Shown here: in pieces, positions 3,587-43,167 of the stretch
How the letters are laid out: each line of letters starts with the position of its first letter
Position numbering within the stretch: position 1 is the first letter of the stretch
The notes under the pieces: model-generated
Databases searched by the model: none
What the model saw: only the letters and a program-made list of their open reading frames with translations
What the model was told of the DNA's origin: nothing
Sequence record: NC_073054.1
Length of the DNA stretch: 45,011 nt
Direction: 5' to 3' (one strand)
Source of the DNA: Escherichia phage JLBYU37
Translations under genes and position numbers: made by a program

Positions 3587-3861
3587 CACCAGAAGGCAAG
3601 ATTCAAAGTCACCTGATGAGACGGGTGAAAGATGTTGGCGGATTCTGCCGCAAACTGGCATGGGAGGGGCGCGCAGGTGCGCCCGATCTGATTATCATCA
3701 TCAACGGCAAAATAGTGTTCGTCGAAGTGAAGCGCCCCGGAGGAAAACCGAAGCCGCACCAGGTACGTGAACATGAGCGGATGGCCCGCCGCGGCGCTGA
3801 CGTTCGCGTTATAGACAACATCGCCGACTGTGATTTATTGGTTGCTGAATTGGTCGCATAG
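3583..3861 (+). CDS. VRR-NUC family nuclease
   Basis: 92 aa; PD-(D/E)XK-type core DLIII...VFVEVKRPGG typical of VRR-NUC. Confidence 0.75.
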   Translation: MTPEGKIQSHLMRRVKDVGGFCRKLAWEGRAGAPDLIIIINGKIVFVEVKRPGGKPKPHQVREHERMARRGADVRVIDNIADCDLLVAELVA

Positions 3862-6772: not shown

Positions 6773-6773
6773 A

Positions 6774-6805
6774 TTGGTTGCATAATCATATTGGTTGCAC
6801 TATCT
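6774..6805 (+). promoter_or_regulatory. sigma70-like promoter built on two direct TTGGTTGCA copies
   Basis: TTGGTTGCA at 6774-6782 and 6791-6799; TTGCAT (6777-6782) N17 TATCTT (6800-6805). Feeds gene 6856. Confidence 0.45.
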
Positions 6806-8230: not shown

Positions 8231-8697
8231 AACTACTGATTTGCGATTTGGATGGCGTTATTAACGGTTCAAGCGATGCGCGTGCCGACCTGGTGCCGGG
8301 GATAAAAACGAAATCAACCTTTTGGGTAAAGTGGCACAAAGCGCACGTTCGCGAAGACCTGAACATGGATATGCTGCCGCTACTGCGCATGTATCAAGAG
8401 CAAGGCTTCGAGATCGCGTATCTGACAAACCGGCAGCGCGAATGCTGGGACACCACCGCCGAGCAATTGGAAGTATTCCCCGTAGGGCGGTTGTTTATGC
8501 GCCACATGCTGGACGACACCCCGCCGCCAGAGTTTAAGGCGTGCGCCGTGTTCAAAATGGTCTGCTACGCGGACGTGTCAGAACTGGTCATCATTGAAGA
8601 CTGCCCGAAGAACATTGCAGCTATCCGTCGGGCGTGTAGCGATTTGGTCCCGAATATTTACGCAATAAACGTTGCGAAATTCACTTGCAACCAATAG
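8227..8697 (+). CDS. HAD-superfamily phosphatase-like protein
   Basis: 156 aa; N-terminal LICDLDGVIN resembles HAD motif I (DxDG). Confidence 0.5.
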   Translation: MKLLICDLDGVINGSSDARADLVPGIKTKSTFWVKWHKAHVREDLNMDMLPLLRMYQEQGFEIAYLTNRQRECWDTTAEQLEVFPVGRLFMRHMLDDTPPPEFKACAVFKMVCYADVSELVIIEDCPKNIAAIRRACSDLVPNIYAINVAKFTCNQ

Positions 8698-8714
8698 GTT
8701 GGTTGCACTATAGT
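8685..8714 (+). promoter_or_regulatory. palindromic operator TGCAACCAA-tagg-TTGGTTGCA overlapping a promoter
   Basis: Perfect 9-bp inverted repeat 8686-8694 / 8699-8707; TTGCAA (8685-8690) N18 TATAGT (8709-8714); upstream of gene 8760. Confidence 0.45.
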
Positions 8715-12344: not shown

Positions 12345-12361
12345 AGCTAAATCCTCATAAA

Positions 12362-12407
12362 TTGGTTGCAATCCTGGCTGAGCGGTGTAATACTAAAACT
12401 CAACCAA
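12362..12407 (+). promoter_or_regulatory. promoter/operator in the divergent region between tail fibre and lipoprotein genes
   Basis: TTGGTTGCA 12362-12370 supplies -35 TTGCAA (12366-12371); TAATAC at 12388-12393; inverted half-site CAACCAA at 12401-12407. Confidence 0.45.
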
Positions 12408-28446: not shown

Positions 28447-28490
28447 TTGCAATCCGGGTGTTGGTTGCATATATTGGTTGCACACCAACC
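28447..28490 (+). promoter_or_regulatory. sigma70-like promoter with two TTGGTTGCA copies and a GGTTG-cacac-CAACC palindrome at the start site
   Basis: TTGCAA (28447-28452) N17 TATATT (28470-28475); motif at 28461-28469 and 28474-28482; palindrome 28476-28490; GAGGA RBS 7 nt before ATG 28505. Confidence 0.6.
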
Positions 28491-38231: not shown

Positions 38232-38497
38232 TTGCTCAGTCTCCCGTGTTTGCCCACCCGCTCAATGGCGGGCTTCTGGCGTAATGTAATACGTATTCCC
38301 ATTGGTTGCAAGGAAGTCCGCACCCTGAAATCGTGTTGTGCTGCGAACTGGTGTAAGTAGCGAGTCTGCGTCAACGGCTTTACGTCGTCGCGATAGCACC
38401 AGAATACCGATTCGCCCTCAACTGCATTCTCAGCCCATATTCGTATGCAATGCAGGGGAATATGCCACGAAAGCTGTTTTGCTCGCCTACGGCCCAT
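38222..38497 (-). CDS. hypothetical protein (91 aa)
   Basis: AAGGGG RBS directly after the stop of gene 38507-38812. Confidence 0.4.
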   Translation of the reverse strand: MGRRRAKQLSWHIPLHCIRIWAENAVEGESVFWCYRDDVKPLTQTRYLHQFAAQHDFRVRTSLQPMGIRITLRQKPAIERVGKHGRLSKCS

Positions 38498-38812: not shown

Positions 38813-38823
38813 CGTTCAGTCCT

Positions 38824-38880
38824 CATGTTGGTGTGCAACCAATATAGCAAGGTGCCAGGGCGAATGCAACCAATATTAAT
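38824..38880 (-). promoter_or_regulatory. sigma70-like promoter with two motif copies (minus strand)
   Basis: On minus strand TTGCAT (plus 38864-38869) N17 TATATT (plus 38841-38846) followed by GGTTGCACACCAAC, same cassette as at 28470-28489; TGCAACCAA at 38834-38842 and 38865-38873. Confidence 0.55.
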
Positions 38881-39024
38881 CACGCGCATGAAAAAGTTGA
38901 TCGCTATCTGCTGTGACTGCAAACTGCGTTTTTCACTCCGCATAATGCAACCCGCATTGGTTGCCTAGTTCATCGACGACCGCTCTTCGCATCATGCTGC
39001 CGTGTATTTTGCAATCTCCAGATT

Positions 39025-39211
39025 TTATTCAGTCTCAGACGAGGGGGGCCACTGACCCCCGTCTAGTCTGAAAGACTGGGGTGCTGTCCCGCTGTCCCGC
39101 TCCTCTGGAAGCCGCGTCATCCGGGGCGGGACGGGGGTGCTGTCCCGCTTTGTCCCGCCCCTTGTTTGTCCCGCTTTTTGTCCCGCTTACTTTATGCAAT
39201 AAAACTGCATA
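39025..39211. repeat. non-coding iteron-rich element, copy 2 (beside the primase-helicase gene)
   Basis: ~90% identical to 22570-22756; GTCCCGC half-sites at 10-16 bp spacing; inverted GCGGGAC...GTCCCGC pair; followed by A/T-rich stretch 39190-39235. Confidence 0.75.
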
Positions 39212-39271
39212 ACTATTCATTATATCTACACTACACGGCAACCAATGCGATATAGATTTAATGCTCAATCT

Positions 39272-39352
39272 GGCAACCAATACGCGCACAAATTAATCGT
39301 TTAGCGATATGGGAATTCCCATATCGGCAACCAATACGCGCAAATTTTAATC
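39272..39352 (+). repeat. two ~28 bp direct repeats GGCAACCAATACGCGCA(C)AAATT(T)TAATC
   Basis: Copies at 39272-39299 and 39326-39352, 54 bp apart; second copy overlaps the primase-helicase stop codon. Confidence 0.6.
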
Positions 39353-41611
39353 TTTTAAGTCATCATCGGTCGCCGAAAGCGTGATGGGTATATTCGTTTT
39401 TATGACAATATTCGACGACCCATAGATGGCTCCGGTGTGTGGGTCTGTATAAAAACCGAGTACGCCGCGCTCGACCATATCGTCGATTGCCTTCGTCGAT
39501 GTGCCACCTTTCGCAAGCCCAGCCTGGCGGACAATTGCCGATTTACTGAATCCGGTATGGTCCGGGTTATCTTCCATCAGTTTTTCCAGCGCTGCATAAA
39601 GCACTTTCTCTTTTTCGTTGCGCGGTCCTGCTGCGTTCTCTTCCTTAACTGCTGCCTTGCCAGCGGCCTTCGCCTGTTCGATGGCGAACGGTGCCAGGGC
39701 GACCGGTACGAGGTAAAGAGTCTCGTCGCGTGGCGTGGAGGCAATTGGCTTGACGTCCCAACCGGCAACTACATCGCCGAAGTCCGGCCCGGTGCTGGTG
39801 GACTGGTGTGCCTCGAACGCCTCGGACTTGCGGAGATCCACCTTAACCTTGCACTTGAGCAGGACGAAGCCGCGCGGCGCTTGCTTAATGCCGTTACGTG
39901 CCTTCTCATGATACAGGTTCAATTGGCCTGGCTGGTTGTCGTCTGGTTGCTCCAGGAAGAACGCGGAATCGACAGCACCATGCAGCGCGCCGGACCCACG
40001 GGGAGATCTGCTGCCGTTTGCACCCTTCGCCGGGTGGTGGATGACTCCCGCACTTCCGCCGGTCTTCTCCGCGATGGCCTTCAGCGCTTTGACCACTTCA
40101 CCCATATCGCTGGCGTTGTTCTCGTCGAACGGTTTAGCATCCGCGGACCGCAACGCAACAGTCTGGTTGAGTGAGTCGAACGCCACCAGGCCAACCGGTT
40201 CGCCGTTAGCGGTGCGGTTGATAAAGCTGATAACTTCGCGCAAGCCTGATTTGCTGGTGATATCCCAGCCGCGTGACTGCAGGTCTATAATGTGCAGCTT
40301 GTCCAGGTCGTGCTCATATTTAATCTGCAATGCTTCTTTACGCTGGTTGGAGGCTTCGCCACCTTCCGCGTCAAAATAGAAGCAATGAGACTGGACGACC
40401 TTCGCACCGCCAAACGGAATACCCGCGGCAACTGCGCCCATCTGGCCCAGCACGTAGAAAGACTTACCGATATTCGACTCACCCGCCATATACCAGGTCG
40501 ATTTAAAGTTAATCAACCCCTCGATGATCGGGTCGTGCTTGCTGAACAGCGCAACCGGCTCGTTATCCAGATCCGCATCGGTGCACACGCCGTATTCTTC
40601 GCCGTCGCCAACCGCATCAACAATATGTTCATATAAGGATTCGACTTCCTCGTCGTCCAGCCCCGGAAGGATGGCGGCGATTTGCTTACGGGACATGTTG
40701 TGCGGTTCGACGTTCAGGTGGTCCGGGATCCCGATAAGACGTAGCGCCAGGTGCTGGTGTCTGTTCAGTTCCGAGCAACACTCGTTGCCGGTGTGCATAC
40801 ACTTGAAACGGATCTCGCCATCCTTGACCATGATAGCCGTCGACCCTTCGCCGCTGTGCAGATGTTCGTTCGGGCACGGCACTTCATAACCGCGACCAGA
40901 AGATAACTCCTCGAATCCGGCCTGGAAGCACCAGTCCAGAATGCCGTCTGCCACTGCGTCGTCGCCCTGGGTAAGCTCGCGGCGTACTTCCTCTTTTTCC
41001 ATTCCCAGCTTATCAGCCAGGCGAAGCAGACGACGGACGCGGGCACGTTTGCCGTAGTGACACTTAACAACCGATTGCTGGTGAGGCAGGTACATAAGGC
41101 GGTTTGTGTCTTTCGTGCAGTCGTCGAAGTCCACATCTGACAGGCCCAGTTGGTGCAATAGCGCATACTGGACACGGCCCAGGTCTTCAGCCGGTACAGG
41201 CTTGTCGGTCAACACAAGGAAGCGAGCGCAACGCGTTCCACCTTTCAGTGGGTGACGGTCGCCGGTTGTGGTGTGGAAGACGTGCTCCAGTCCCGCGTCG
41301 ATGAACGCCTTACGGCAGCGGCGTAGGGTGCGGGTGTCAGTACGGTCAATATCGAAGAACAGGATCGAGCGGTCCACCGCACTGGTCTTGCGACGTAAGC
41401 CGTCACTGGTATAAGCCACAATACCATCGGCCTTACGCTTGCGGCGTGCATACTCCGCTTTATCTTCCGTCTTGTTGATATGCACCGAGGATATTTCTTT
41501 CGCATCATTAATAAATTCGAAAAACTCATCGGTGGTCATCTGGAAGTTTTCCGCCCTGGCTTTTTCGCCTTTTTTAGCGGGTTTTGTTACAGCGAATTTA
41601 ATCAAGCTCAT
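39347..41611 (-). CDS. primase-helicase (N-terminal primase-polymerase-like domain, zinc-binding region, C-terminal P-loop NTPase)
   Basis: 754 aa; ILFFDIDR acidic motif, Cys/His cluster CPNEHLH...CMHTGNEC, Walker A GESNIGKS, Walker B-like LVAFD. Confidence 0.8.
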   Translation of the reverse strand: MSLIKFAVTKPAKKGEKARAENFQMTTDEFFEFINDAKEISSVHINKTEDKAEYARRKRKADGIVAYTSDGLRRKTSAVDRSILFFDIDRTDTRTLRRCRKAFIDAGLEHVFHTTTGDRHPLKGGTRCARFLVLTDKPVPAEDLGRVQYALLHQLGLSDVDFDDCTKDTNRLMYLPHQQSVVKCHYGKRARVRRLLRLADKLGMEKEEVRRELTQGDDAVADGILDWCFQAGFEELSSGRGYEVPCPNEHLHSGEGSTAIMVKDGEIRFKCMHTGNECCSELNRHQHLALRLIGIPDHLNVEPHNMSRKQIAAILPGLDDEEVESLYEHIVDAVGDGEEYGVCTDADLDNEPVALFSKHDPIIEGLINFKSTWYMAGESNIGKSFYVLGQMGAVAAGIPFGGAKVVQSHCFYFDAEGGEASNQRKEALQIKYEHDLDKLHIIDLQSRGWDITSKSGLREVISFINRTANGEPVGLVAFDSLNQTVALRSADAKPFDENNASDMGEVVKALKAIAEKTGGSAGVIHHPAKGANGSRSPRGSGALHGAVDSAFFLEQPDDNQPGQLNLYHEKARNGIKQAPRGFVLLKCKVKVDLRKSEAFEAHQSTSTGPDFGDVVAGWDVKPIASTPRDETLYLVPVALAPFAIEQAKAAGKAAVKEENAAGPRNEKEKVLYAALEKLMEDNPDHTGFSKSAIVRQAGLAKGGTSTKAIDDMVERGVLGFYTDPHTGAIYGSSNIVIKTNIPITLSATDDDLKD

Positions 41612-41621
41612 TGCCGTGGCC

Positions 41622-41951
41622 TTACTTAGAAGTTTTATTATTGCGTACCCAGGAGCGCACTGTGCTCTGATTAATTCCGGTCAACTCGGCAATCATCGCC
41701 CAGGATTTGCCCTCGGCGCGCAAACGGATAACCTGTTTTTTGTATTCTTCCATTTCTTCATTGTGCTTTTGCAGCTTGCTTGCTGCCGTGCCGTTGAGCA
41801 ATTCCAGCCTGGCGCGTAATTCTTTTTCGACACTGCGCAGTCGTTCGATTTCAAATAATACAGCCCCCACGGCATCGGTATATGCCCATGACCGGCTTGT
41901 CTCACTGCTAACAGTCTTCGTTAACATTTCGATTGCGTCGTTTACATTCAT
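41622..41951 (-). CDS. small HTH DNA-binding regulator (109 aa)
   Basis: C-terminal helix-turn-helix SWAMIAELTGINQSTVRSWVRNN; N-terminal coiled coil; GGGGG RBS; divergent from the early promoter region. Confidence 0.55.
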   Translation of the reverse strand: MNVNDAIEMLTKTVSSETSRSWAYTDAVGAVLFEIERLRSVEKELRARLELLNGTAASKLQKHNEEMEEYKKQVIRLRAEGKSWAMIAELTGINQSTVRSWVRNNKTSK

Positions 41952-41965
41952 TGTTCTGCCCCCAG

Positions 41966-41980
41966 TTGGTTAATGACCAA
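41966..41980. promoter_or_regulatory. palindromic operator TTGGT-taatg-ACCAA upstream of the HTH regulator gene
   Basis: Inverted repeat 15-29 nt upstream of the regulator start codon; same TTGGT half-site as the dispersed motif. Confidence 0.4.
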
Positions 41981-42024
41981 TGAAACTACACCTAAAACCG
42001 CAGGGTGTCAACTCCTCTGGAATA

Positions 42025-42053
42025 TTGAAACGGGCGCGCACGCGTGTAATAAT
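42025..42053 (+). promoter_or_regulatory. sigma70-like promoter TTGAAA-N16/17-TAATAA(T)
   Basis: TTGAAA at 42025-42030, TG then TAATAAT at 42045-42053; transcripts would run into the terminator at 42083-42118. Confidence 0.5.
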
Positions 42054-42082
42054 ACTCCCGTCTCATTGTCTCTTATTGGTTA

Positions 42083-42118
42083 GCGCCGTCGCATTTTGCT
42101 TCGGCGCTTTTTTTTTTT
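42083..42118 (+). terminator. strong rho-independent terminator
   Basis: GCGCCG-13 nt loop-CGGCGC followed by 11 consecutive T. Confidence 0.7.
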
Positions 42119-42129
42119 GAAATTAGTTG

Positions 42130-42158
42130 TTGACTCCCTTCTGCAACCAATCTAATAT
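42130..42158 (+). promoter_or_regulatory. near-consensus sigma70 promoter of the plus-strand early operon
   Basis: TTGACT (42130-42135) N17 TAATAT (42153-42158); TGCAACCAA motif at 42142-42150 inside the spacer. Confidence 0.6.
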
Positions 42159-42218
42159 TCACTCCGTCGACAGGGCATACCGCCCGGACACCTAAACTTA
42201 ACCAATCGGAGATATACC

Positions 42219-42737
42219 ATGTTTGAGCAAATCGTAAACCTGATCACTCGCGGCGTAGTAGCACTGGAAACCATTGCAAAGCATTATGAAACCGTTGGCG
42301 CTGCCGTTGGTAAGCAGGAAGACAAGAAGCCGTCTAAGGCCAAAAAAGAAGTTGTCGAAGATGGCGACGACGACGCCGAAGACGAAAAACCGGCTAAAGC
42401 TAAAAAAGCACCGGCGAAGGGTAAGGCCAAAAAAGAAGTCGTAGAAGATGACGACGACGAAGACGCCGAAGACGAAAAACCGGCTAAGGCCAAAAAAGCA
42501 CCGGCGAAAGGCAAAGGTAAGAAAGATGCCGATCCGCTGGCGGAGATGCGCGACGAAATCAAACAGTATGCCGCGATTATCGCCGGTGGTGATGACGACG
42601 ATGCGAACGACGAATTCGACGACCTGCTGGAAGCGTTCGAGATCAAATCAATCGCCAAGCTGGAAGATGACGACGTCGAAGACTTCCACAAAGATTTAAA
42701 AGAAATCGTCGAGACTTATTTCGAACTGGAAGACTAA
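42219..42737 (+). CDS. highly acidic protein with tandem charged repeats (172 aa)
   Basis: First gene after the early promoter; two ~90 bp tandem repeats encoding KKEVVEDxDDDAEDEKPAKAKKAPAKGK; acidic C-terminal helical region. Confidence 0.6.
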   Translation: MFEQIVNLITRGVVALETIAKHYETVGAAVGKQEDKKPSKAKKEVVEDGDDDAEDEKPAKAKKAPAKGKAKKEVVEDDDDEDAEDEKPAKAKKAPAKGKGKKDADPLAEMRDEIKQYAAIIAGGDDDDANDEFDDLLEAFEIKSIAKLEDDDVEDFHKDLKEIVETYFELED

Positions 42738-42741
42738 TATC

Positions 42742-42867
42742 ATGGACTATGAAATGAGAATCATGCTCGATTTCATAGCAGAAAATTGGGCGGCATTCAC
42801 CGCCTTCTGCGAAGAAAGAGGCGACGACCCGGACGAGGTTTATAAACAACTCGGCGGTGAAGATTAA
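42742..42867 (+). CDS. small hypothetical protein (41 aa)
   Basis: MDYEMRIMLDFIAENWAAFTAFCEERGDDPDEVYKQLGGED; followed by a terminator; weak RBS. Confidence 0.3.
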   Translation: MDYEMRIMLDFIAENWAAFTAFCEERGDDPDEVYKQLGGED

Positions 42868-42873
42868 TATTAT

Positions 42874-42902
42874 CCGGCCCGCATATTAGCGGGCCTCTTT
42901 TT
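42874..42902 (+). terminator. rho-independent terminator
   Basis: CCGGCCCGC-atatta-GCGGGCC followed by TCTTTTT. Confidence 0.65.
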
Positions 42903-42915
42903 AGAGGACGAGACA

Positions 42916-43167
42916 ATGGCACGATTCACGCTAATCGAGGCGGTGGATTCCCGCGACCAGCGCCCGTACTATTGGCTATTCGAACGCATCGGCAGCTTTC
43001 AATCCCGCGTTGCCGTAATAGATAAACGCCGTAACACGCCCGCGCAAATTAAGCGCACCACCTTTACTAATCCCGACTTTTATATTTGGGCGGATTCAAA
43101 TCTGGAATATGTTCGCTTCGCAGTTGCATCCGAAGCAAAAACAATCGACCGCTGGGAGACAAAATAA
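42916..43167 (+). CDS. hypothetical protein (83 aa)
   Basis: ATG 42916; stop overlaps the next ATG (TAATG); no motif recognised. Confidence 0.45.
   Translation: MARFTLIEAVDSRDQRPYYWLFERIGSFQSRVAVIDKRRNTPAQIKRTTFTNPDFYIWADSNLEYVRFAVASEAKTIDRWETK

Follow-up and report, generated by a model that had tools for sequence, protein, structure and literature searches.

A candidate small-RNA gene in the control region of the Dhillonvirus JLBYU37 and its complementarity to the start sites of early phage genes

Our analysis concerns a short unit at positions 42025–42118 of the genome of Escherichia phage JLBYU37 (sequence record NC_073054.1), in which a promoter, here called P_s, is followed by a short transcribed segment and an intrinsic terminator. 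The whole stretch of 45,011 nt analysed, hereafter the window, is a complete or nearly complete Dhillonvirus genome (HK578-like E. coli siphophage), and its region 41600–42800 has 90–96% identity to more than 100 named phages, including Zumzum, welsh, SO-1 and slur05. We suggest, with good confidence, that the product of the unit is a discrete small RNA, and the unit appears to be an undescribed, genus-wide small-RNA gene that would represent a new family within a known kind of RNA. On the fuller model, that this is an immediate-early non-coding RNA gene of about 55 nt whose product represses phage early genes in trans by pairing, our judgement is evenly balanced. The candidate partners are the mRNA of the replicative helicase-primase (the primase, below) and that of the first rightward gene (gene 1, or gene 42219). 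The sequence elements of the unit, their conservation, the compensatory changes within the hairpin, and the complementarity to both mRNAs, with co-variation, are direct observations; coordinates are collected in Table 1.

Promoter, transcript and terminator of the unit

The promoter P_s is the top match of the promoter scan and agrees with the sigma-70 consensus at 10/12 positions (TTGAAA-N17-TGtAATAAT, 42025–42053), as the original prediction, made from the letters of the window, had claimed in calling it a good sigma-70 promoter. Only two 10/12 sites occur in the 45 kb (both strands), P_s alone has the extended −10 TGn, and shuffled sequences gave about 0.2 such sites. The same prediction described a terminator with a 6 bp GC stem plus 11 T; a hairpin and 11 T are indeed present, but the stem consists of seven outer pairs (A42082–U42108 and six G–C pairs, 42083–42088 with 42102–42107) and three inner ones (42091–42093 with 42097–42099) rather than a simple run of six. 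Folding, one of the checks then proposed, gave a free 5′ segment, unpaired in both minimum free energy (MFE) and centroid structures, followed by the terminator hairpin at −16.2 kcal/mol (z −3.4 to −4.0; none of 200 shuffles as stable). The hairpin begins about 28 nt past the −10 element and is preceded by 22 nt of unstructured RNA; since our terminator scan accepts only loops of up to 8, it does not list the hairpin at 42082–42108. The start and end of the RNA are predicted from promoter geometry and terminator position, so that the short transcript originally proposed is supported but its length is corrected from about 60 nt to 54–57 nt. No plus-strand gene upstream needs this terminator, as had been stated, because all genes from 9927 to 41951 lie on the minus strand. 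The features of the small-RNA class found here are a predicted independent intergenic promoter, a Rho-independent terminator with a long U-tail, and a conserved single-stranded seed.

The 49-nt body of the RNA is present in all 153 phage records that have this intergenic region (40 identical, 88 with one or two differences, four at 80–90% identity), and its carriers include dhillonviruses isolated on E. coli K-12, for example GeorgBuechner and PaulFeyerabend. Among 26 genomes of lineage A (the window and its close relatives), none of the 23 columns of the free 5′ segment (42060–42082) varies, nor do the seven stem columns of the 5′ arm, variation on the 3′ side being limited to gap columns from the length of the T-run, which is 8–13 in relatives. 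By the same count, variable columns number two of 13 in the hairpin loop region, two of 17 in the P_s spacer, nine of 22 in the stretch between the divergent promoters, and five of six in the discriminator, which has 1-nt indels (variants ACTCCC, AATTCTC, ACTTTCC, AATCCCC, AAAAACC and AATCAC). A variable discriminator is thus followed by invariant bases from 42060, that is, invariance starts exactly at the expected transcript start. In phage Opt212 a 5-nt UUGUC duplication separates the two pairing segments (seeds 1 and 2; Table 1) and leaves both intact, and in HK578-type genomes the left part of the region has been swapped for unrelated sequence with the unit retained.

Several records, among them those of Zumzum (L002 1874–2020) and CHD5UKE2 (L021 1204–1347), carry a 'hypothetical protein' coding sequence (CDS) over the unit, which might accordingly encode a small protein from a 36-aa open reading frame (ORF; 41973–42083) or a 46-aa ORF (41980–42120). 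We find this scarcely credible: the ORFs cross the promoter and have no Shine–Dalgarno sequence, their frames are shifted in close relatives by the 1-nt indels of the discriminator and by T-run length, and the left part of the region is replaced in the HK578-type genomes that keep the unit. Since the frames are broken among relatives, the annotated CDS is probably spurious, and the unit is not coding; if the RNA is real, several GenBank records carry a spurious 'hypothetical protein' over it.

Diverged lineages were sought in IMG/VR, in one metagenome scan, and by protein search with contig look-ups. The IMG/VR searches with the helix-turn-helix (HTH) protein of the first leftward gene and with gene 1 gave the same approximately 16 genomes, the metagenome scan gave only eight close relatives, one of them an adapter chimera, and useful new lineages came only from protein search and contig look-ups. 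(The chimera, metagenome contig OQVL01056812.1 or L029, has its small-RNA hairpin broken by the Illumina adapter ACACTCTTTCCCTACACGACGCTCTTCCGATCT and is excluded from all counts.) A pattern scan of IMG/VR (CTCATTGTCT...T8) gave, beyond known copies, only unrelated sequences among the matches listed. Beside lineage A we distinguish lineages B (L015, L020 and L027), C (L018), D (L171), E (L172) and F (L176).

All six lineages share one layout, a sigma-70 promoter, a free 5′ segment, a two-tier hairpin, U9–13 and then a rightward promoter. The −35 hexamer is TTGAAA in lineages A and B, and TTGCGC, TTGTGC or TTGTAC at equal spacing in lineages C–F (promoters TTGCGC-N17-TATTAT, TTGTGC-N18-TATTAT, TTGCGC-N18-TATAAT and TTGTAC-N17-TAAGAT); in lineage B a 2-bp deletion in the P_s spacer is offset by extra A residues past the −10 element. 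The free segment measures 23–45 nt in lineages B–F and is largely unpaired where folded. The six lineage stems (GCGCCG/CGGCGC, UCCCCG/CGGGGA, AUCCCCAG/CUGGGGAU, AUCCCUG/CAGGGAU, AGCCUG/CAGGCU and CCCGCAAAA/UUUUGCGGG) differ by compensatory changes, with both arms altered, which is a signature of selection on an RNA hairpin. The sole sequence common to the six lineages is the 5′ end of the RNA, (G)(U)CUCAUUGUC, or GUUCAUUGCU in lineage E, with CAUUG invariant. The unit was not found in Cornellvirus PhiSTP1 nor in more distant relatives with an HTH_3-type leftward gene. Retention of the unit in six lineages with compensatory stems, together with conservation that starts at the predicted +1, argues for the short-transcript reading put forward originally.

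An alternative is that the RNA has no function and the unit acts on DNA or on transcription, as an insulator of the rightward early promoter P_R, as a T-tract UP element, through supercoiling of the leftward promoter P_L, or by recruiting polymerase. P_s and P_L do stand back to back, with 13 bp separating their −35 hexamers, the T-run and AAATTAG sit at the UP-element position of P_R (we place the T11 tract at about −57 to −47 of the predicted P_R start), and distant relatives without the unit (L173–L175) have an A/T-rich stretch there. Such an action nevertheless leaves unexplained why 23 transcribed, unstructured bases are invariant beside a variable discriminator, why the stem changes are compensatory and why the 5′ segment tracks two mRNAs (see below); moreover, a T-run of 8–13 would shift the register of an UP element. 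We therefore consider an action on DNA alone distinctly unlikely.

A second alternative, which we judge improbable, is that termination in the unit is regulated, as in an attenuator or in an antitermination cassette of the lambda P_R′–tR′ ('6S RNA') type. The short RNA would then be what is made by default, and a phage or host factor would permit read-through here and at the internal terminator at 42876–42895 and so boost the distal rightward genes. A strong promoter does lie near a terminator upstream of an operon with an internal terminator, the P_s spacer is unusually conserved and palindromic and could be bound by a protein in the manner of a Q-binding element, and all lineages keep CATTGT at +5 to +10, whose A2 and T6 are those of a −10-like pause element; from sequence, the conservation of CATTGT and of the spacer reads equally well as a pause or Q site and as constraint on an RNA seed or a promoter. 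A read-through transcript would, in addition, contain both the anti-Shine–Dalgarno segment and the ribosome-binding site of gene 1, and the two would pair in cis. Against this, no antiterminator fold was found, the terminator being the sole stable structure in the lineages folded (A, B, C and F), and in every lineage the operon has its own promoter, P_R, between terminator and gene. No Q, N or other antiterminator family occurs among the five flanking gene products (Pfam and PHROGs; only HTH or function-unassigned families), a boxA-like CUCUUA is not kept in lineages C–F, and the late structural genes run the other way. The attenuation leader offered in the original prediction as the second reading of the unit is, like a riboswitch leader, disfavoured on similar grounds, with no alternative fold, a separate downstream promoter after the terminator and no conserved leader peptide. 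A nut (boxA/boxB) reading was likewise rejected: compared with the boxA consensus CGCUCUUA, GUCUCUUA is boxA-like (6/8) in lineages A and B only and absent in C, E and F, and the hairpin, being followed by U9–13, is a terminator and not boxB.

Complementarity of the 5′ segment to early phage mRNAs

The 5′ end of the RNA forms helices of 9–12 bp at the primase start in six of six lineages. The primase sequences concerned are GGCAAUGAG in lineage A (window 41615–41607, minus strand; 9 bp with one G:U), GAGACGAUGAGA or AGACAAUGAGA in lineage B (11–12 bp), GACAAUGAGC in lineage C (10 Watson–Crick pairs), GGCAAUGAG again in lineage D (9 bp), AGCAAUGAAC in lineage E (10 Watson–Crick pairs) and AGACAAUGGGC in lineage F (9 bp with one G:U, beside a second, bulged match of 13 bp). 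Shuffling gives P = 0.023 for the duplex in the window and from <0.001 to 0.015 in lineages B–E, and in cofolding the MFE structure forms the duplex with a free-energy difference (ddG) of −10.9 kcal/mol. In particular, lineages C and E differ by three compensatory double changes, in which RNA position 2 goes from C to U with mRNA +5 from G to A, RNA position 9 from U to C with mRNA −3 from A to G, and RNA position 10 from C to U with mRNA −4 from G to A; at one of these three variable pairs lineages A and D show a U:G intermediate. In a joint alignment of RNA and primase start, 87.3% of cells are paired in register as against 36–55% when slid, and four pairs show double changes.

The second partner is the leader of gene 1. 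Seed 2 forms a duplex of −18.7 kcal/mol with this leader in the window (shuffle P = 0.0075), the cofold MFE forms that duplex (ddG −15.7), most of the site being unpaired in the mRNA; by cofold ddG the start of gene 42219 ranks first of 67 start sites in the window, and by duplex energy the two genes flanking the unit rank first and second there. Lineages C–F have no AACCAA segment and possess instead other sequences complementary to their own gene-1 ribosome-binding sites: ACUCCUGAA with UUUAGGAGU in lineages C and D, UAUCUCC with GGAGAUA in lineage E, with further helices over the start codon and codons 2–4, and UUUGCCGCAUUGG with CCAAUGAGGCAAA in lineage F. The shuffle P values are 0.0075 (A), 0.0005 (C), 0.0045 (E), 0.021 (F) and 0.09 (D). 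In a cross matrix each lineage's own pair of RNA and leader scores best, except for lineage B and for ties between C and D.

A possible further target is the start of gene 42916 (Table 1), the best of the seed-1 matches to start sites, which is kept in nearly all lineage A and B genomes examined and is absent in phage rolling and in lineage C. The start of the leftward HTH gene was rejected as a conserved target, since it scores well in the window and in CHD5UKE2 (L021; P about 0.015), whereas lineages B, C, D and F and many variants of lineage A do not score well there.

Several results weigh against these pairings being specific. The RNA–primase covariation score is 0.190 compared with 0.148 ± 0.021 for shuffles, a value reached by 21 of 500 shuffles, and the structure in that test was derived from the same sequences that were tested. 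Seven lineage-A genomes have a mismatch at −1 of the primase start, and HK578 retains only 7 bp. Further, seed 1 gives helices of at least 9 bp (G:U allowed) at 8 of 66 start sites in the window, compared with 1.9 for shuffled seeds; as it contains CAU and CUCU it is generically anti-start-site, and the primase site is not unique within the window. For gene 1, lineage B pairs only weakly with the leader (shuffle P = 0.17), lineages C, D and E have other local start sites that score equal to or above gene 1, and a duplex scan of both strands of the window gives about 15–20 sites equal to the gene-1 site, so that within-genome duplex energy alone is not significant. Target prediction, the other check originally proposed, thus returned pairing with the primase and gene-1 start sites, but, for gene 1, with poor specificity among local start sites, and we regard the phage targets as plausible from sequence and statistically moderate.

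The original prediction had linked a transcribed segment, TTATTGGTTAGC, to a dispersed operator motif. This link is not supported. TTATTGGTTAGC bears only a loose resemblance to the motif, the true consensus being GCAACCAAT, and complementarity to UAACCAAU in the leader of the neighbouring gene accounts better for the RNA segment UUAUUGGUUA. Other lineages have unrelated sequence in place of this segment, and that sequence too is complementary to the leader. The 9-mer GCAACCAAT itself occurs in the window in 14 exact and 14 one-mismatch copies (28, compared with 12.5 ± 3.4 expected). Exact copies are nearly all intergenic, often in direct or inverted pairs, and some lie inside promoters; since they occur in both orientations relative to transcription, this is a DNA-level motif, probably the binding site of a phage regulator. 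For the same two reasons, orientation and location inside promoters, GCAACCAAT was rejected as an RNA target of the small RNA. The motif also occurs in the control region of Kagunavirus UTI-CM001 (L031).

Considering that a genuine dispersed DNA motif exists, that half-sites of the AACCAA type cluster at 41966, 42076, 42145 and 42200, and that one DNA strand carries near-identical 9- to 10-mers as the sites in the RNA gene and at the start of the primase, the conserved bases might be DNA operators for the phage HTH protein, with opposed copies of (A)TTGGTTA and CTCATTGTC giving the RNA complementarity as a by-product. Nevertheless, two of the three DNA mismatches between the RNA and the gene-1 site in the window are U:G, so that RNA pairing is kept in the proposed orientation, and the single primase-site differences in lineages A and B are also U:G. 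Lineages C–F pair with the gene-1 leader without an AACCAA motif, an operator in the primase start codon, approximately 370 bp downstream of the leftward promoter, would have no obvious role, and compensatory hairpin changes and a U-tract are features of RNA. Operators as the source of the conservation are, in our view, very improbable.

A real small RNA might also have host mRNAs, Hfq or another titrated RNA-binding protein as its main partners, the phage matches being incidental to a CU-rich, CAU-containing seed. In favour of this, the RNA is built like the base-pairing small RNAs of the host type, seed 1 has generic matches to many start sites, conservation across lineages is greatest in the 5′ decamer, as a conserved host target would predict, and the lambda-encoded PreS/LPR1 acts on host dnaN (bioRxiv 10.1101/2024.10.31.621285). 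A host target leaves unexplained, however, that the lineage-specific changes of the RNA are matched in the phage primase start and in the gene-1 leader, and we think it unlikely that the host provides the main partners. A host or prophage origin of the RNA was rejected, as no match to the unit was obtained in 5,426 complete E. coli genomes. Further searches bear on novelty: an Rfam scan of the window region (E up to 10) gave chance-level matches only (best 18–21 bits against thresholds of 43–79; E = 0.9–1.9), a scan of five related loci gave nothing at the gathering threshold, the C4 family also being unmatched, and in the literature searched there was no paper on the RNA. The HK578 GenBank record annotates the equivalents of all three promoters (P_s, P_L and P_R) by consensus and no RNA; beyond this note we found no annotation of the RNA gene.

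We return to the model of a trans-acting RNA that represses phage early genes. Transcription by the sigma-70 RNA polymerase of the host would begin at about G42060, from the promoter that matches the consensus best in the whole genome, and would stop at the hairpin 42082–42108 and its U-tract. The RNA would then act in trans on translation-initiation regions of early phage mRNAs and block ribosome binding, nucleotides 3–11 (CUCAUUGUC) covering the start codon of the primase, whose mRNA would come leftward from the back-to-back promoter, and nucleotides 8–23 covering the Shine–Dalgarno region of the first rightward gene. Because P_s has the look of a constitutive promoter, the amount of RNA should increase with the number of phage genome copies, and the replication protein could in this way come under negative feedback of the kind seen in antisense copy-number control of plasmids. 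Production of the RNA, its exact ends, its action in trans, repression and the feedback logic are all steps that we infer from the arrangement of the sequences.

Taken to its end, the model would give a strictly lytic phage a plasmid-like RNA copy-number sensor, in which a constitutive 55-nt RNA, driven by the genome's strongest promoter, uses one bipartite seed to shut off translation of both the helicase-primase and the first early gene of the opposite operon without a protein repressor; we offer this tentatively and with more doubt than belief. If true, the sensor would govern how fast replication proceeds and how early expression gives way to late. Small regulatory RNAs are familiar from temperate phages and prophages but, to our knowledge, are rarely documented in virulent coliphages, with none on record for dhillonviruses. 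Dhillonviruses are a common wastewater and gut genus that includes therapy candidates and E. coli K-12 isolates. If the targets hold, the RNA would be an RNA-level brake on the phage replication enzyme and, if the model is true, a compact, portable promoter–RNA–terminator module with defined targets. E. coli K-12 already supports the growth of phages whose RNA body is the same or nearly the same, and the model is thus open to direct testing.

Genome context and other elements of the control region

Genes run leftward from 41951 to 9927 (all on the minus strand) and rightward from 42219, wrapping to about 9899; because gene directions split there, the 267-bp gap at 41952–42218 is the divergent control region of the whole genome. 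The early promoter at 42130 named in the original prediction is present (TTGACT-N17-TAATAT), and P_L is unlisted by the promoter scan because its −10 matches at only 3/6 positions.

Table 1. Positions of the unit, its candidate targets and neighbouring features in the window
Feature	Position	Strand	Description
P_s −35 hexamer	42025..42030	+	TTGAAA
P_s spacer	42031..42047	+	17 bp, GC-rich alternating purine/pyrimidine (GCGCGCACGCGTG); almost invariant; function not assigned
P_s extended −10	42045..42053	+	TGtAATAAT (TG 42045–42046; AATAAT 42048–42053)
Discriminator	42054..42059	+	Between −10 and +1; freely variable, including 1-nt indels
Predicted small RNA	42060..42116	+	54–57 nt; +1 at about G42060, 3′ end in U-tract
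Seed 1	42062..42070	+	CUCAUUGUC, RNA nt 3–11; complementary to helicase-primase start-codon region
Seed 2	42067..42082	+	UGUCUCU-U-AUUGGUUA, RNA nt 8–23; complementary to gene 42219 leader and Shine–Dalgarno
Terminator hairpin	42082..42108	+	7-bp outer stem, 2 × 2 internal loop, 3-bp inner stem, UUU loop
T11 tract	42108..42118	+	Terminator U-tail
Candidate target 1	41607..41615	−	Helicase-primase mRNA −4 to +5 (GGCAAUGAG); start codon 41611–41609
Candidate target 2	42199..42214	+	Gene 42219 leader UAACCAAU-C-GGAGAUA, including Shine–Dalgarno
Possible further target	42910..42919	+	Gene 42916 start GAGACAAUGG; 10 bp with seed 1, nine Watson–Crick
Probable leftward promoter P_L	41983..42011	−	TTGACA (42011–42006)-N17-TAGTTT; read from sequence
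Rightward early promoter P_R	42130..42158	+	TTGACT-N17-TAATAT (−10 at 42153–42158); one GCAACCAAT motif in spacer
First leftward gene	41622..41951	−	109-aa helix-turn-helix protein; Pfam HTH_23, E = 2.4e-7
Replicative helicase-primase gene	39347..41611	−	754 aa
First rightward gene (gene 1)	42219..42737	+	172-aa charged-repeat protein, phrog_3127; function not assigned
GCAACCAAT sites	3837–3857, 6773–6798, 8687–8706, 12361–12369, 28460–28481, 38301–38309, 38835–38874, 38956–38964, 39238–39335, 42143–42151		Dispersed 9-mer motif

Within the P_s spacer, positions 42034–42046 form a 13-bp perfectly alternating purine–pyrimidine tract that contains the palindrome CACGCGTG. The spacer is nearly invariant in lineage A and takes a (GC)n form in HK578. 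It could serve to bind a protein or act as an element sensitive to supercoiling (Z-DNA-prone). A further near-perfect palindrome, TTGGTTAATGACCAA (TTGGT-N5-ACCAA), occupies 41967–41981, which places it within the HTH-gene leader and roughly between +1 and +20 with respect to the probable P_L; it is likely to be an autoregulatory operator. It is missing from HK578-type genomes, whose leftward gene differs.

The product of gene 42219 is rich in Lys, Asp and Glu repeats, tandem repeats at 42330–42520 encoding KKEVVEDDDD(E/A)EDEKPAKAKKAPAKGK units; its homologues range from 115 to 239 aa, mainly by repeat number, and phage welsh annotates a repeat_region there. A strong intrinsic terminator (42876–42895; GGCCCGC-loop-GCGGGCC then UCUUUUU) follows the first two genes of the rightward early operon, within that operon and directly ahead of gene 42916; to be expressed, the distal early genes therefore depend on read-through, on antitermination or on a further promoter.

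Most dhillonviruses have, in the 5′ untranslated region of gene 1, an insert of about 136 nt between GTCGAC-type repeats (L001, at about 2035–2175, L003, L005–L010, L012, L014, L016, L017, L019, L022, L023, L025, L026, L028, L172 and L180), which in the window, Zumzum and a few others is replaced by a 15-nt GGGCAUACCGCCC hairpin (window about 42177–42191). The insert has a multi-stem fold (−43.8 kcal/mol consensus) in which one pair co-varies three ways (A–U, U–A and C–G), and it gave no Rfam match in the one relative carrying it that was scanned; it looks like an undescribed structured leader RNA.

The non-coding stretch 38813–39346, just downstream of the helicase-primase gene, contains seven GTCCCGC copies at 39080–39190 (e.g. 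gctgtcccgctgtcccgc, ttgtcccgcccc...tttttgtcccgc), an iteron-like array with three GCAACCAAT motifs on its flanks. We regard the array as a candidate replication origin; being the better candidate, it makes it less likely that the unit is itself an origin or a primer RNA.

In the equivalent divergent region of a distant relative, Kagunavirus UTI-CM001 (L031 1376–1859), a consensus promoter (TTGACA...TATAAT) is followed by about 250 nt that contain strong hairpins, by a weak terminator-like hairpin and by a second promoter, which stands ahead of the first early gene. This promoter–structured region–promoter arrangement is longer than, and not alignable with, the unit of the window, and may be an analogous, unrelated non-coding RNA.

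Relation to known small RNAs

The RNA of the window is not a member of the c4, CopA/RNAI, Hfq-type or PreS families, considering that it has no Rfam match, is not cis-antisense and is not processed from an operon transcript; its likeness to each is one of build or logic. Like the Hfq-type RNAs RybB, OmrA/B and MicC, it combines its own sigma-70 promoter and a conserved, single-stranded 5′ seed with a U-rich stretch ahead of a GC hairpin and with a long U-tail, a likeness of architecture, and at about 55 nt it would be among the shortest. The lambda-encoded PreS/LPR1, which acts on host dnaN, enhances its translation and influences DNA replication (bioRxiv 10.1101/2024.10.31.621285), is likewise phage-encoded and of the same build. 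In contrast to this enhancement of a host gene, the best-supported partners of the window RNA are phage genes, and the geometry of pairing implies repression.

Among RNAs encoded beside the genes that they control, lambda OOP and P22 sar (about 70–77 nt) have their own promoter and intrinsic terminator and control, through base pairing, a regulatory gene next to them. Both are cis-antisense RNAs that overlap the gene they target, whereas the window RNA overlaps no gene and has short complementarity in trans. In tisB/istR-1 and shoB/ohsC a small-RNA gene also stands beside the target promoter, with partial pairing of about 20 nt to the 5′ untranslated region or ribosome-binding site; unlike in these type I toxin–antitoxin systems, the target here is a 172-aa highly charged protein and not a small hydrophobic toxin, and the genes are in tandem, not divergent. 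The lambda P_R′–tR′ '6S RNA' resembles the unit in having a strong constitutive promoter close to a terminator, which gives an abundant short RNA upstream of an operon, and differs in that the window has no Q-like gene among the flanking products and its operon has its own promoter past the terminator.

In the logic proposed here, the nearest parallels are R1 CopA and the ColE2/IncI-type RNAI, whose constitutive level follows gene dosage and which block translation of the replication initiator, as the window RNA may do at the helicase-primase start codon. These RNAs are cis-encoded and fully complementary and act through kissing loops; the window RNA (42060–42116), in contrast, does not overlap the primase gene, is encoded approximately 450 bp from its target in the opposite transcription unit, and would pair over 9–12 bp through an unstructured 5′ seed. 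In mode of working it comes closest to the c4 RNA of phages P1 and P7, a trans-acting RNA whose short, interrupted complementarity masks the ribosome-binding site of a downstream gene, and which is likewise a small phage RNA encoded beside its target in a control region. Yet c4 is cut from an operon transcript, serves temperate-phage immunity and displays its pairing segments in structured loops, whereas the window RNA has a promoter and a terminator of its own.

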